From: an uncultured Candidatus Saccharibacteria bacterium
GTDB lineage: Bacteria; Patescibacteriota; Minisyncoccia; Phycocordibacterales; UBA9973
Direction of reading: 5' to 3'
Assembly (NCBI GenBank): GCA_964440545.1
Contig: CAYTSO010000002.1
Coordinates: forward strand, 8,636-72,635
DNA length: 64,000 nt
Below, one piece after another: positions 616-4,229 of the stretch (positions within the stretch are counted from its first letter, which is position 1; the number at the start of each line of letters is the position of its first letter). The notes under the pieces are model-generated. The model did not search any database. It saw nothing but the letters and a program-made list of their open reading frames with translations, and was not told where the DNA came from. Made by a program: the position numbers and the translations under genes.

Positions 616-2227
616 ATTTGTAGACCTTTTTGGAGGGTTCGCATAGTGGTCTAGTGCGCAGACCTGGAAAGTCTGTATGTCTGAAAGGGCATCGGGAGTT
701 CGAATCTCCCACCCTCCGCAAATTTTCGAAAAGGGCTTCGGAACCAAAAAAATGGTCGGCACGAAGTGCCGTCTGTTCTGAATTCCCCCCAAAAAATCCT
801 GAATCCAAAAGGGTTCGCCACGCAGAGCGTGGCTCAAAAAGTACGGTTCGATCTTTAATTAAAAAGTTCGAACCGACTTTTTTAAACAAATGAAGATTTT
901 CTTCATTTGTTTTCTCGTTAGCTAATTCCACCATATGAATATTAGCTTTTAGAAAATTTTCGGTAAGTTCGAACCGATTATTGGATTTTTTCTCAAAAGC
1001 CGATAATTTCTCTTTTAAAAGTTGTTTTTGATTCACTAACTTATTTTTAGAATCACGATACTCTTCCAAAGACAAAACATTTTCTAAATATAAGTTCATC
1101 AACTTTTCAACTTTTGAATCTAAAAGAGAAATTTCATCTTTTGTTTTTTGAGAAAAAATCTCACTCGATTGATTTTCTGATTGCCGATCTTTTGTGTTTT
1201 CGGCAATCATCCAATTTGCCCAATCGAGTGGCAAAGAAACTTTTTTGATTTCTTCCTTAATTTGAGAAGTGATGAGTTCCTCACGGACATATTTTTGCAA
1301 ACAAGGATTTTTCCGTTTAGTACATCGCAAATAGTTATGACCTTTTTGTTGTTCGGTGGTAATAAAACATCCACATTCTCCGCAACGGAAAAATCCTCTA
1401 TACAAAAATGGTTTCAGTCCTTTGCTATGAGGTTTAGATTTCCTCATCATCACTTCTTGAACGGAATCAAAAAGTTTCTTTGTGATAATCGGTTTGTGCT
1501 TTCCTTCATATATTTCACCACCATATTTCATTAAGCCCGTGAAAATCGGATTTCTCAAAATTTGTTGGTAGTTGGAAACGGAAAGCACCTTTCCATTCTT
1601 TCTACTCAATCCAAGCTCGTTAAACTTATCGTGTAATTGTCTCAAAGTGAAATTTCCAGTTGCATAGGCCTCAAATGTTTTCTTGATTAACGGAGCAATA
1701 TTTTCATCGGGTACTATTCCAGCACCTTTTACATTTACATAGCCCAGAGGCGACATTTGAGGCCATATACCGTCTTTCACTTTGTTTCTATGTCCACGCT
1801 TAATATTTTCGCTTAGATTGTCCACATAATACTTGGATTGTGAGAAAGCAATGGAAAGCATGAACTTACCTTGTGGCGTAGTATCACACCAGAAAGTCGG
1901 AAATTTTAGCTCGGCAATTTTTCCCGTATCGAGCAAATATATTATTTTTCCACCATCAACACTATTTCTCGCAAGTCTATCGGGGTGCCACGCCAAAATT
2001 CCCGAAGCCTCATTTGCTTCGATGCGGAGAAGCATTTCATTAAATACTGGCCGACCTGGAGCCTTAGCGGTTTGTTTTTCCACAAAAATATCTACAACCT
2101 CAATTTGTTCTTTAACCGCTAACTCTTTTAATTCGGCCAGTTGGTCTGAAATGCTTCTAACTTGCCGATCTTCTGTGTCGGTAGATTTTCTGGTGTATAT
2201 AAAAAATTTTCTAGTTTGATTATTCAT
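548..2227 (-). CDS. Large serine recombinase (resolvase/invertase N-domain, recombinase domain, Zn-ribbon, coiled coil). The conserved core is about 863-2227. No stop codon before the IR, so the ORF reads through IR-A, the tRNA-Ser complement and the ligA 3' end.
   Basis: N-terminus [19 protein letters not shown] has the catalytic Ser context of the serine recombinase family. It also has a Cys cluster (CGECGCF...C) and a C-terminal coiled coil. The last ~105 codons are IR, tRNA and ligA sequence. Confidence 0.8.
632..718 (+). tRNA. tRNA-Ser(GGA), class II with a long variable arm
   Basis: Acceptor GGAGGGT/ACCCTCC, anticodon stem CAGAC/GTCTG with loop CTGGAAA (anticodon GGA), long variable arm, T-arm GGGAG-TTCGAAT-CTCCC, discriminator G. 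Folded by hand. Confidence 0.8.
716..835. repeat. IR-A left arm: 120-bp perfect inverted repeat, partner 2249-2368, overlapping the last 3 nt of tRNA-Ser
   Basis: The reverse complement of 2249-2368 matches 716-835 at every position. It contains internal hairpins GCCACGC-AGA-GCGTGGC and CGGCAC-GAA-GTGCCG. Confidence 0.9.
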
Positions 2228-2248
2228 ATTGTTGCATTGGATAACGAG

Positions 2249-2368
2249 GAGCCACGCTCTGCGTGGCGAACCCTTTTGGATTCAGGATTTTTTGGGGGGA
2301 ATTCAGAACAGACGGCACTTCGTGCCGACCATTTTTTTGGTTCCGAAGCCCTTTTCGAAAATTTGCGG
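2249..2368. repeat. IR-A right arm (inverted copy of 716-835)
   Basis: Perfect reverse-complement match to 716-835. Confidence 0.9.
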
Positions 2369-2562
2369 TATTCATTGTACAAAATTCGAACCTTTTTTGA
2401 AATGAATCCCGACGAGGAAATCTGAAAAATGCGGACTCGGTTTTGCGAAACAATTTTCTGGGGATACGGATTCGCAAAACCTCGGCTGATTTTTCCGCCC
2501 GCATTCCTCCCCAGACCCCTCCTGCGGGCGGGTTTCGGATTCGCCAAATTATTTTTTCGCCA
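2365..2562. repeat. IR-B left arm: 198-bp perfect inverted repeat, partner 4032-4229. It overlaps IR-A right arm by 4 nt (GCGG).
   Basis: The reverse complement of 4032-4229 is identical to 2365-2562. It contains sub-hairpins CCGCCCGCAGG...CCTGCGGGCGG and TTTTGCGAA...TTCGCAAAA. Confidence 0.9.
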
Positions 2563-2636
2563 ATCAATATTCATATATGGAATTATAACTCCATATTGAG
2601 TATAAACGCAATAGTTGATAACATGTTAATATAAAT

Positions 2637-2843
2637 ATGGCTCAAATTTCCAAAAAATTAGGAGATAACATTAAGCGGATACGGCTTCGCCGTAAAATGT
2701 CGCAAGGCGACATTTGCCGAGCAATTGATATGGATAGAAGCTATATGAGCGCAATTGAAAGTGGTAAAAAGAATGTAACCATTGCCGTTGTAGAAAAACT
2801 TGCTCGTGCGCTTAATGTTTCAGTTGATGAGTTATTGAAATAA
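2637..2843 (+). CDS. XRE-family helix-turn-helix transcriptional regulator (68 aa)
   Basis: LGDNIKRIRLRRKMSQGDICRAIDMDRSYMSAIESGKKNVTIAVVEKLARALNVSVDELL is a classic Cro/C1-type HTH. Confidence 0.8.
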   Translation: MAQISKKLGDNIKRIRLRRKMSQGDICRAIDMDRSYMSAIESGKKNVTIAVVEKLARALNVSVDELLK

Positions 2844-2847
2844 TTTT

Positions 2848-3633
2848 ATGAAACCACATTTACTATTAGTACATTCATTTCCCACAAATAGTGTTTTACT
2901 TCATGGGTTAGAAGAATTTCTTTCCGATTTTTTTATAGTACATTTTATTGACCTTCCAGGTTTTCATAAAAATAATCCACCTTTTACTGGTGAGATAACT
3001 TTAGAAAGATTTTCAAATTATTTTGATAAAAAAATCGCGGGGTTAGATGTGGACGAGTATATTGTTGGAGGGGTATCGTTCGGTTTTCTGGTTGTTAATA
3101 ACGCGAAATTAGATAAGAGATGTAAAGCCATATTAGCCATGGAGCCGTTTGTGAATACGAAATGTTTGAATACTTCTTTTCTAAAACAAAGAGGTTATGT
3201 TGTTATGGCAATATTATTAAAACTTATACATTTTTTTCATATCGAAAAACAAATATGGAAATCAAAATGGTTTAATTGGGTTTTACAAAAAGAAGCGGAT
3301 TATCCAAAAGAGAGAGTGGATACAATAATTCAACACATAGATTCTCGAACATTTTTCTCCGTAACAAGTTTATTATTGAATTACAACAAGAATCCAAATT
3401 TTCACGAACTTCCATATTTTTTAATTGGAAACTTTGAGGATAAAACTATCAATTTTAACTCTGTTGTAGAAGTCTTTAAAAAAAATTTACGAAAACTGCA
3501 TATTTTTTCCGTGCCGATTGATCATTACCCAAAAGACTTAACAAAAGAATATTTCAAAGAAAGAATACCAAATGAAAACATACAAAGTATGATTGAATCA
3601 ATAACAAACAATGATTATCAATTAATTAAATAA
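2848..3633 (+). CDS. alpha/beta-hydrolase fold protein (putative esterase/lipase)
   Basis: N-terminal LLLVHSFPTNSVLLHG and the nucleophile elbow GVSFG (GxSxG). Function otherwise unknown. Confidence 0.5.
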   Translation: MKPHLLLVHSFPTNSVLLHGLEEFLSDFFIVHFIDLPGFHKNNPPFTGEITLERFSNYFDKKIAGLDVDEYIVGGVSFGFLVVNNAKLDKRCKAILAMEPFVNTKCLNTSFLKQRGYVVMAILLKLIHFFHIEKQIWKSKWFNWVLQKEADYPKERVDTIIQHIDSRTFFSVTSLLLNYNKNPNFHELPYFLIGNFEDKTINFNSVVEVFKKNLRKLHIFSVPIDHYPKDLTKEYFKERIPNENIQSMIESITNNDYQLIK

Positions 3634-3641
3634 AATATTAT

Positions 3642-4025
3642 ATGGAAAACGAAATTTTAATATTTATCATTTCATTTATTATCGGTTTGACATGGAATAG
3701 ATTTCTTTTCATTGTTGTCCCTGATTATTTCAAAAAACCTTTTGTCCGTTCTGTTATTAAATTACGATGGCATCATTTGCACATGGGACTTGTTTTGATT
3801 ACAATCGGCACAATATTTTTTTTACTGTCGCCCGGAAATATGTTTGTAAATATTTTGCTAGGGGTCGGGCTTGGATTAGCGATTGATCTTTTTATTCCTT
3901 CCATGCAATTGGAAACGGATAGAAATAAAGAATTGGTTGTATATCGTAGTTCATTAATACCTACTTTGTTGCTCGGAGCATTAATCGTGGTTATAATTGT
4001 TGTTTTATCAATTTTTAATAAATAG
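3642..4025 (+). CDS. small hydrophobic membrane protein (3-4 TM), hypothetical
   Basis: Hydrophobic segments such as ILIFIISFIIGLTW, LVLITIGTIFFLL and LLLGALIVVIIVVL. No recognisable motif. Confidence 0.45.
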   Translation: MENEILIFIISFIIGLTWNRFLFIVVPDYFKKPFVRSVIKLRWHHLHMGLVLITIGTIFFLLSPGNMFVNILLGVGLGLAIDLFIPSMQLETDRNKELVVYRSSLIPTLLLGALIVVIIVVLSIFNK

Positions 4026-4031
4026 AAATGA

Positions 4032-4229
4032 TGGCGAAAAAATAATTTGGCGAATCCGAAACCCGCCCGCAGGAGGGGTCTGGGGAGGAATGCGGGCGGA
4101 AAAATCAGCCGAGGTTTTGCGAATCCGTATCCCCAGAAAATTGTTTCGCAAAACCGAGTCCGCATTTTTCAGATTTCCTCGTCGGGATTCATTTCAAAAA
4201 AGGTTCGAATTTTGTACAATGAATACCGC
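4032..4229. repeat. IR-B right arm (inverted copy of 2365-2562)
   Basis: Perfect reverse-complement match. The ORFs 2220-2567(-) and 3997-4275(+) encode identical peptides, which confirms the inverted duplication. Confidence 0.9.

Follow-up and report, generated by a model that had tools for sequence, protein, structure and literature searches.

What is a gene for a large serine recombinase (LSR) doing between two abutting pairs of long, perfect inverted repeats at the 3' end of a tRNA-Ser gene? The question is raised by positions 716 to 4229 of a 64,000-nucleotide stretch of contig CAYTSO010000002.1 (the window), from an uncultured Candidatus Saccharibacteria bacterium. A sequence-only reading had left the choice between a compact integrative element and a pair of invertible segments forming a regulatory switch. 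Having followed it up with comparisons of junctions, repeats, and related loci, we consider it very probable that this region of ~3.5 kb is a compact mobile element, present as one integrated copy, that has an LSR at its heart and is inserted at the 3' end of tRNA-Ser.

Junctions and layout of the element

The two repeat pairs reported earlier, of 120 nucleotides (arms A and A') and 198 nucleotides (arms B and B'), were recovered by both a repeat finder and BLAST as 100% complementary, including their overlap by the nucleotides GCGG (Table 1); the larger pair extends to 201 nucleotides (2362-2562/4032-4232) when the repeat finder crosses one mismatch. Perfect repeats of 120 and 198 nucleotides cannot be of chance origin. 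With GC contents of 51% (A) and 47.5% (B), the arms differ markedly from the interiors (35% and 30%), and no further copy of arm A or B was present in the window, where the next best BLAST matches were ≤20 nucleotides. The previously noted position of the left end within the tRNA-Ser(GGA) gene was confirmed as well: according to ARAGORN and Rfam, the A repeat overlaps the last 3 to 4 nucleotides of that gene.

The left junction (...ACCCT CCGC AAATTTT) joins the tRNA to arm A (...TCTCCCACCCT-CCGC-AAATTTTCGAAAAGG); the middle junction, read on the reverse strand (...GAATA CCGC AAATTTT), joins B' to A (...GTACAATGAATA-CCGC-AAATTTTCGAAAAGG); and the right junction (...GAATA CCGC CAAATAT) joins B' to the host flank (...GTACAATGAATA-CCGC-CAAATATGATATAAT). 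CCGC is the sole sequence common to all three, and we read the junctions as having the form of attL (tRNA/A), an intact inverted attP (B'/A), and attR (B'/flank). Moreover, joining the outer host flanks yields ...ACCCTCCG-CCA-AATATGATATAAT, i.e., an intact tRNA-Ser gene whose encoded end is CCA (...CCG-CCA) and, beyond it, the promoter of the downstream desulfurase gene with its extended -10 element. Since the junctions take this form and the host sides rejoin to tRNA-Ser-CCA, the region represents a single insertion. The exchange has the conservative character of an LSR reaction, in which only CCGC (or CCGCCA) is shared among junctions whose flanks rejoin, a resolution that stops short of the exact crossover dinucleotide. 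The middle junction, at which the sequence-only reading had placed the border between two modules, is on this comparison better read as an intact inverted copy of the element's own attP and not as a border between two elements; as described below, tandem arrays repeat cargo and recombinase together.

These junctions lead us to propose the following mechanism. In the excised form, a circle, B' would be joined to A to give attP, and the recombinase would exchange strands inside CCGC between this attP and an attB provided by the tRNA end. If any sequence can serve as the other half of attB, attL (tRNA plus A) would still be a target for a different incoming element, and arrays would grow on the tRNA side. 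The attP region of ~320 bp (B' plus A) is present twice, in inverted orientation: one copy is split by integration into the outer arms, and the second remains intact between the divergent recombinase and XRE regulator genes. The element thereby consists of two segments, one with the recombinase and one with the cargo, and inverted repeats enclose each of them. Gene conversion would keep the arms identical, either segment would occasionally invert, and the internal attP could capture a second tRNA-Ser gene, leading to rearrangement of the chromosome.

The arrangement is not confined to the window. A search for homologs of the recombinase returned 7,388 proteins, the best 120 of which were 81 to 98% identical to it, the named ones coming from many lineages of Patescibacteria (the candidate phyla radiation [CPR]). 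From a scan of one genome per species, which identified 243 loci, 80 were fetched and kept (137 loci were fetched overall); the recombinases in the related elements are 77 to 98% identical. With the recombinase on the plus strand, the shared layout reads flank, then B-cargo-XRE-B', then A-recombinase-A', then tRNA-Ser, and it was found in >100 independent Patescibacteria contigs, at tRNA-Ser genes of every anticodon. An arm A pair of ~120 nucleotides surrounds the recombinase gene in the majority of the 80 kept loci, and an arm B pair of 190 to 273 nucleotides, enclosing 1.5 to 6 kb of cargo, abuts the 5' side of that gene wherever the upstream sequence suffices. The same layout is kept around recombinases of 60% and 40% identity, found in tandem arrays, with their own arms (156 and 140 nucleotides) that are unrelated in sequence to arm A. 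Elements of the family measure 3.5 to 8 kb and are devoid of phage or conjugation genes. No description of the family was found in the literature; it is apparently undescribed and would represent a new architectural variant of LSR-driven integrative elements. The earlier suggestion that the arms are copies of a family of miniature inverted-repeat transposable elements (MITEs) or repetitive extragenic palindromes (REPs) had to be abandoned, as they occur only once as pairs in the window and, in the 137 fetched loci, only at these elements or their decayed derivatives.

A temperate phage or prophage origin was considered and rejected: IMG/VR (2.9 million contigs) contained one distant relative only, phage integrases are at most 28% identical to the recombinase, and the cargo consists of 1 to 7 accessory genes. 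Several loci (L009, L010, L024, L025, L028, L054, and L058) were deposited in metagenome-assembled genomes (MAGs) labeled Bacteroidota, Gammaproteobacteria, Bdellovibrionales, or Lentisphaerae, one of them a 950-kb single contig; such record names probably reflect mis-binning or misnaming and not a wider host range.

With repeats this perfect, an assembly artifact has to be considered, in which the assembler itself made the inverted repeats, e.g., by mis-joining integrated and excised forms or through a hairpin chimera. Many related contigs do end inside arm B, and the B' boundary is where Logan contigs break in SRR14492171-3, the samples containing this genome; assemblers evidently have difficulty with the repeats, but contig ends in arm B are expected because the repeat is longer than the assembler k-mer. 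Furthermore, the architecture is the same in >100 contigs, which come from studies unrelated to one another and were produced by various assemblers (MEGAHIT, SPAdes, and others), including the full layout in single-contig assemblies of 0.8 to 1 Mb (OY969413 [~1 Mb], CAZXMM010000001, and JAKACP010000001); the arms have diverged between elements, yet match within each; and the junctions between recombinase end and A' and between B and cargo start must exist in the reads for any assembler to emit them. For practical purposes, an artifact is excluded.

Attachment sites and the recombinase

In ~60 loci, a tRNA-Ser gene adjoins arm A' with its 3' end (anticodons gga, 17; gct, 16; tga, 14; cga, 8; act, 3), and other tRNA-Ser genes in the same loci are unoccupied. 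Together with the junctions, this recurrence supports the part of the sequence-only reading that envisaged a compact integrative element, carried by an LSR to the 3' end of tRNA-Ser. (ACT is unusual as a serine anticodon in bacteria; ARAGORN called tRNA-Ser genes with this anticodon in the flanks of L023, L024, L046, and L067, three of which are occupied by an element.) In 18 complete elements, as in the window, CCGC, extended to CCGCCA in some, is the sole identity among the three junctions. The motif, which these comparisons support as the shared crossover core proposed earlier, maps to acceptor nucleotides C71-C72, discriminator G73, and the start of CCA.

When information content was computed over distinct junctions, the four half-sites differed considerably. 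The 30 nucleotides left of the core in attP, at the end of B' (half-site b; 74 distinct sites), carry 1.48 bits/nucleotide, the tRNA half (t) carries 1.25 bits/nucleotide, the start of arm A (a) carries ~1.0 bits/nucleotide, and the host flank in attR (f), at 0.22 bits/nucleotide, is not conserved. Half-site b follows an almost invariant pattern, TTCGAA-YTT-YGT-NCA, and half-site a occurs as several discrete types. The distance from TTCGAA to CCGC is 16 nucleotides in every B' end versus 11 nucleotides in tRNA-Ser, where the motif lies in the T-loop, placing it 5 bp nearer the center in the attB-type half-site than in the attP-type half-site. In A118-type integrase, the zinc-ribbon motif is displaced by exactly the same 5 bp (attP bp 16 to 24 versus attB bp 11 to 19; PMC3783163). 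By analogy, TTCGAA would be the motif bound by the zinc-ribbon domain and, because of the 5-bp offset, b and t could represent the attP-type and attB-type versions of one recognition element. From the conservation of its two halves, we infer that attB would be recognized from one side only.

One-sided recognition is also the starting point of one version of a more radical explanation, in which the mirrored arms are the working principle of a new type of serine-recombinase element; we consider this unlikely. If only one side is read, the tRNA end plus anything would act as attB and the B' end plus anything as attP, integration would be reversible without a directionality factor, and the inverted internal attP would let the enzyme flip its own gene relative to the tRNA promoter, creating a self-locking on/off switch. 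In the other version, the arm pairs would fold after natural transformation, while the DNA is single-stranded, and so restore a double-stranded attP, much like the folded single strands of CTX phage and integron attC sites, but with a serine recombinase.

The assignment of the recombinase itself as an LSR was upheld by a hidden Markov model check, which found a resolvase catalytic domain with the serine-nucleophile motif near the N terminus (PF00239, Resolvase; E = 1.4e-20, residues 9 to 154) and, C-terminal to it, the Recombinase (PF07508; 1.1e-13) and Zn_ribbon_recom (PF13408; 2.8e-07) domains. Matches in the PDB were to catalytic domains only. Within the element, the open reading frame (ORF) meets no stop codon; after 40 codons in arm A, it crosses the tRNA gene in antisense and ends only at position 548, in the 3' end of the ligA gene, for a total of 559 amino acids. 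Read-through of arm A' was found in ~75 related loci and likewise in the 120 closest proteins. Canonical integration produces a tail encoded antisense to the tRNA (R-R-D-S-N-S-R...), and continuation into arm B beyond the core produces a conserved tail of 16 to 19 amino acids (Y/C-x-L-x-K/E-I/V-R-x-Y/F-F-x-x-N-P...), seen in ~15 of the 120 closest proteins. Three contigs with the B-type tail (L085, L086, and L087) were considered as circles, but they are tandem or flipped integrated forms or indistinguishable from them.

Judging by these reading frames, the C terminus of the recombinase does change with integration status, but we claim no function for the tail, since arm A is open in other frames too. 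The possibility that the 40 arm-encoded codons are genuine coding sequence was dismissed: arm A is open in at least four frames, residues vary where hairpins covary, and frameshifted variants exist (L036 and L057). In Myxococcus phage Mx8 (intP) and mycobacteriophage BPs (repressor gene), attP reportedly lies inside a gene, such that integration alters the C terminus of the protein, in BPs as part of integration-dependent immunity. The element resembles these systems in that its recombinase ORF crosses the crossover core, its tail being set by the sequence beyond, but differs in that the 40 arm codons are poorly conserved as protein and arm A is stop-free in several other frames.

Arrays, inversions, and evolution of the arms

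Tandem arrays of the form (cargo-recombinase)(cargo-recombinase)-tRNA were found in L041, L048, L070, and L119, with an inter-unit junction of the type a_old'/b_new'. In these arrays and in L085, the distal unit often has a far more divergent recombinase (60%, 40%, and 27%) and its own arm pair; in L085, the B arm that comes after arm A' is of a different type, which fits the tandem scheme. The junctions imply that arrays would be the expected product of an incoming circle using a resident attL as attB. The recombinase genes of L026 and L027, which belong to different MAGs, share 100% nucleotide identity but are located at different tRNA-Ser genes, from which we conclude that the family is currently mobile. 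L027 is a canonical insertion at tRNA-Ser(tga). In L026 (JAUPUE010000001.1, 5778-7596), convergent tRNA-Ser(gga) and tRNA-Ser(gct) genes enclose the recombinase module, and a second tRNA-Ser junction takes the place of the internal attP-equivalent site. This would be the expected product of a reaction between the internal attP and a second attB; the internal attP thus appears to be still active, and the arrangement suggests a chromosomal inversion or deletion mediated by it.

The arrays also bear on an alternative scheme, in which two independent modules (A-recombinase-A' and B-cargo-B') form their own circles with palindromic joints (a'/a or b/b') and insert successively beside the tRNA. Each module does have an inverted repeat of its own exactly at its ends, CCGC cores mark all module boundaries, and arrays of more than two modules exist; in addition, a and b types reassort freely, each module has been found inverted on its own, and a homodimeric recombinase would be better served by a palindromic site than by the asymmetric b/a. 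However, the repeating unit of the tandem arrays is always the cargo-recombinase composite, and not an arbitrary order of modules, which argues against independence. Likewise, the tRNA always adjoins arm A and never arm B, and no solo cargo module was found at other tRNA-Ser genes in the fetched flanks, although the search, anchored on the recombinase or arm A, could miss them. Metagenomes were also sampled without bias by means of a 20-mer from the type-1 a end; the 52 junctions obtained comprised 25 a'/b', 20 a'/tRNA, and ~6 decayed cases, and none (0/52) was a palindromic a'/a. Finally, symmetric ends predict a 50:50 distribution of orientations, whereas the orientation is ~95% fixed. We therefore regard two independent modules as distinctly unlikely and retain the single composite element.

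Inversions do occur: the recombinase module is flipped in ~5 to 8% of loci (L012, L014, L059, L086, and L087) and the cargo module in ~7% (L035, L062, and L124). As in serine-invertase systems, the arms end at cores and both orientations are found, in a comparison made across genomes. The sequence-only reading was right, then, to see invertible segments, but one orientation strongly dominates, with 22 of the 23 scorable junctions in the metagenome sample being canonical; selection at mobilization may be what keeps it so. A stronger version of the invertible-segment idea would make the locus a resident switch that is not mobile, with the recombinase acting as a DNA invertase (Hin/Gin- or shufflon-like) that alters how the XRE operon or the recombinase is expressed; its position next to the tRNA would be ancestral. 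While the presence of both orientations of each segment among genomes and the location of the recombinase gene inside a repeat-bounded segment (as with hin) would suit such a switch, near-identical or identical recombinase genes are found in different lineages and next to tRNA-Ser genes for different isoacceptors, elements occupy only a minority of the tRNA-Ser genes in these loci, the cargo is hypervariable, and tandem arrays exist. Besides, the enzyme is a three-domain LSR and not a small invertase with a C-terminal helix-turn-helix (HTH) domain, one orientation dominates at 22:1, and occasional inversion is compatible with a mobile element. We consider a resident switch very improbable.

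Within one element, the A arms are a median of 99.2% identical (23 of 55 pairs are perfect), versus a median of 76.7% between elements. The within-element distribution is bimodal, with 36 of the 55 pairs at ≥97% and 11 at <90% identity, and the divergent pairs are hybrids, some of which share only the inner 54 nucleotides. B arms are 98.8 to 100% identical within elements. We infer that homologous gene conversion would keep similar arms identical and would fail once recombination between elements has yielded very dissimilar ones. With near-identical arms throughout the family, the very recent formation suggested earlier is not needed to account for the perfect repeats in the window.

A GC-rich hairpin in arm A, which has a TTCG loop and a T-run directed from the interior toward the core, shows compensatory double changes in three base pairs. 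The arm also includes a nearly invariant palindrome, GCCACGC-N3-GCGTGGC, the upstream copy of which lies 21 nucleotides before the recombinase start. In arm B, the second hairpin shows four compensatory pairs between arm types (TTTTGCG/CGCAAAA versus CAGGGCG/CGCCCTG). The first hairpin of arm B (window positions 4062-4099, mirrored within 2365-2562) has a stem of CCCGCCCGC/GCGGGCGG and a 21-nucleotide loop, AGGAGGGGTCTGGGGAGGAAT, which is the reverse complement of ATTCCTCCCCAGACCCCTCCT in L005, L023, L035, and others, a small loop inversion of the hairpin type. A promoter-like sequence in arm B, TTCAAA-16-TACAAT, was discarded as a conserved promoter, because other arm types do not conserve the match seen in the window. 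Given their structure, the arms probably also insulate and regulate the two operons; candidate roles are insulation or termination around the cores, an on/off switch of the recombinase by inversion, pairing of mRNA 5' and 3' ends, and single-strand folding after uptake.

Six contigs (L115, L123, L125, L127, L133, and L136) represent derivatives without a recombinase, in which the module is replaced by a ~97-nucleotide core-a-hairpin-a'-core sequence, still flanked by a B arm and/or tRNA-Ser. The left and right a parts of these remnants are often of different types, and in our reading they would have arisen by deletion between the two copies of the palindromic hairpin.

Several observations weigh against the integrative element as we propose it. 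Neither a circular form nor an empty site or a read-level variant was observed, and the predicted empty junction (...ACCCTCCGCCAAATATGATATAAT; ...CACCCTCCGCCAAATATGATATAAT) had 0 exact matches in JGI metagenomes, from which the host may simply be absent; when the flanking desulfurase and the cargo hydrolase were looked up as exact proteins, the only matches were short Logan contigs that break at the repeat and contain neither an empty site nor an alternative context. The attP (b/a) is not pseudo-palindromic, its halves being unrelated, unlike those of studied LSRs, and three different a types accompany recombinases that are 97 to 98% identical, so that a may not be read specifically, leaving the role of the right half-site in doubt. 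Re-use of attL as attB departs from the canonical LSR rule and has so far been seen mainly between divergent elements. A circle with two equal attP copies, integrating via either, predicts that half of the insertions have both segments flipped, which was not seen. The argument for gene conversion is drawn entirely from identity statistics, and, with no candidate recombination directionality factor identified, excision is left unexplained.

Features, cargo, and related systems

Table 1. Features of the integrated element and its tRNA target (window coordinates)
Feature	Coordinates	Strand	Remarks
tRNA-Ser(GGA)	632-719 (ARAGORN); 632-718 (Rfam tRNA, 55.4 bits)	+	Integration target; T-loop and acceptor 3' strand would form the specific left half of attB
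attL crossover core CCGC	716..719	+	Acceptor C71, C72, discriminator G73, first C of CCA
Arm A, outer copy adjoining tRNA	716..835	+	120 nucleotides; perfect inverted repeat with 2249-2368
Parts of arm A	757-771 (hairpin); 817-833 (palindrome)		Variable outer ~30 nucleotides; terminator-like hairpin, flagged by terminator scan; C/G run; palindrome GCCACGC-AGA-GCGTGGC
Large serine recombinase ORF	548..2227	-	Conserved protein 836-2227 (464 amino acids); Pfam domains, ORF list
Arm A', inner copy	2249..2368	-	21 nucleotides upstream of recombinase start codon
Putative internal intact attP, inverted	2340..2395	-	Reads ...TTCGAATTTTGTACAATGAATA CCGC AAATTTTCGAAAAGGG; core GCGG 2365-2368, where the A and B pairs overlap; from junction comparison
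Arm B, inner copy	2365..2562	+	GC-rich, two long hairpins; perfect inverted repeat with 4032-4229
Promoter-like TTCAAA-16-TACAAT	2401-2374	-	In arm B, pointing through the core toward the recombinase; promoter scan
Palindrome ATATGGAATTATAACTCCATAT	2575..2596	.	ATATGGA-ATTATAAC-TCCATAT, perfect 7-bp arms; unique spacer upstream of XRE gene
XRE-family HTH regulator	2637..2843	+	68 amino acids; Pfam HTH_3, 9e-15
Cargo gene 1, possible alpha/beta hydrolase	2848..3633	+	261 amino acids; Abhydrolase_1 24.6 bits, below cut-off of 25.8
Cargo gene 2, hydrophobic protein	3642..4025	+	127 amino acids; ORF list, no Pfam match
Arm B', outer copy	4032..4229	+	Last ~40 nucleotides are the conserved attP-type half-site; conservation profile
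attR core CCGC	4226..4229	+	Followed by original tRNA trailer CAAATATGATATAAT, containing the extended -10 of the cysteine desulfurase gene

In an Rfam scan of window positions 1 to 6000, the tRNA was the only match, and the arms therefore belong to no known RNA family. Elsewhere in the window (59888-59982), ARAGORN reported a 95-nucleotide tRNA-Cys with anticodon ACA, which, given its unusual length and anticodon, may be a false call or an odd tRNA.

Besides the recombinase gene, the family conserves only the XRE gene, whose HTH assignment from sequence alone was confirmed: 16 of 18 complete related elements have it, adjoining the inner B arm and divergent from the recombinase gene. The palindrome upstream of it, judged by its sequence and position, is a plausible candidate operator for the XRE protein. 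By comparison with the XRE call, that of an alpha/beta hydrolase is marginal, the match lying just below the cut-off. The remaining cargo differs in every related element and includes, across the family, AAA_15/AAA_21 ATPases, GmrSD/HNH proteins, an EcoRI-type methylase, Fic, D-Ala-D-Ala ligase, a cytochrome-D1-domain protein, a trypsin-like protease, and membrane proteins. Candidate defense or toxin genes were noted in L085 (526-6264), L024, L030, and L039, with matches to AAA_21, GmrSD_N/HNH, T5orf172, EcoRI methylase, Hypoth_Ymh, AAA_15, and Fic. The elements may be small defense-gene shuttles in CPR genomes.

With the modules of phiC31, Bxb1, A118/LI, and TP901-1, the element shares the three LSR domains, conservative insertion, an identity of 4 to 6 bp between attP and attB, the location of the recombinase gene beside attP, and the 5-bp shift of a motif between attP- and attB-type half-sites. 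In contrast to LSR modules of phages and integrative and conjugative elements, however, its att sites are strongly asymmetric, with one specific half and another that is variable (attP) or random (attB); it re-uses attL as a target, lacks a recognizable directionality factor, and keeps a second, complete, inverted attP region, resulting in its 120- and ~200-nucleotide inverted repeats. Its small size, its lack of phage and conjugation genes, and the distance of its recombinase from phage integrases set it apart further. Tn4451 and Tn5397 (TnpX and TndX), compared by domain content only, are similarly small nonphage elements with a single LSR and a circular intermediate (here, a putative one). 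TnpX and TndX each perform both excision and insertion. Neither transposon has long terminal inverted repeats or an internal copy of the joint, and they use a GA dinucleotide at many targets instead of the tRNA-Ser end.

Hin, Gin, Cin, and shufflon systems likewise feature segments that are bracketed by inverted repeats with crossover sites at their outer ends, that contain the recombinase gene (hin), and that occur in both orientations. The element differs from them in its LSR of 460+ amino acids, as opposed to an invertase of ~190 amino acids with a C-terminal HTH, in its repeats of 120 to 270 nucleotides, in being mobile and cargo-carrying, and in the predominance of one orientation. As an analogy only, the predicted circle, with two unique segments, two inverted repeat copies that each contain a recombination site, and concerted evolution of those copies, recalls the yeast 2-micron plasmid (FLP/FRT) and plastid-type inverted-repeat genomes, although the 2-micron plasmid relies on a tyrosine recombinase and no replication functions were found in the element. 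Tyrosine-integrase islands at tRNA genes carry a direct repeat of 15 to 50 or more nucleotides of the 3' part of the tRNA at their far end. The element does not belong with them, its recombinase being of the serine type and only 4 to 6 nucleotides being repeated; neither does the distribution of its arms match that of dispersed MITE or REP sequences.

With thousands of homologs of 80 to 98% identity across classes, and 243 loci in species representatives, the family is apparently among the commonest mobile elements of Patescibacteria. It carries hypervariable accessory and defense genes (AAA/OLD-like ATPases, restriction-modification components, Fic, and D-Ala-D-Ala ligase) into tiny genomes with few other known vehicles. 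The usual view of site selection and directionality in serine integrases is challenged by the inverted duplication of the attP region and by the asymmetry of the sites. From the internal attP that is retained, one would predict inversions or deletions between tRNA-Ser genes, driven by the recombinase, as a mechanism of genome rearrangement in these lineages. Finally, with a universally conserved target (the 3' end of any tRNA-Ser gene) and a single specific attB half, the recombinase is a candidate integration tool for CPR bacteria, in which genetics is barely possible.

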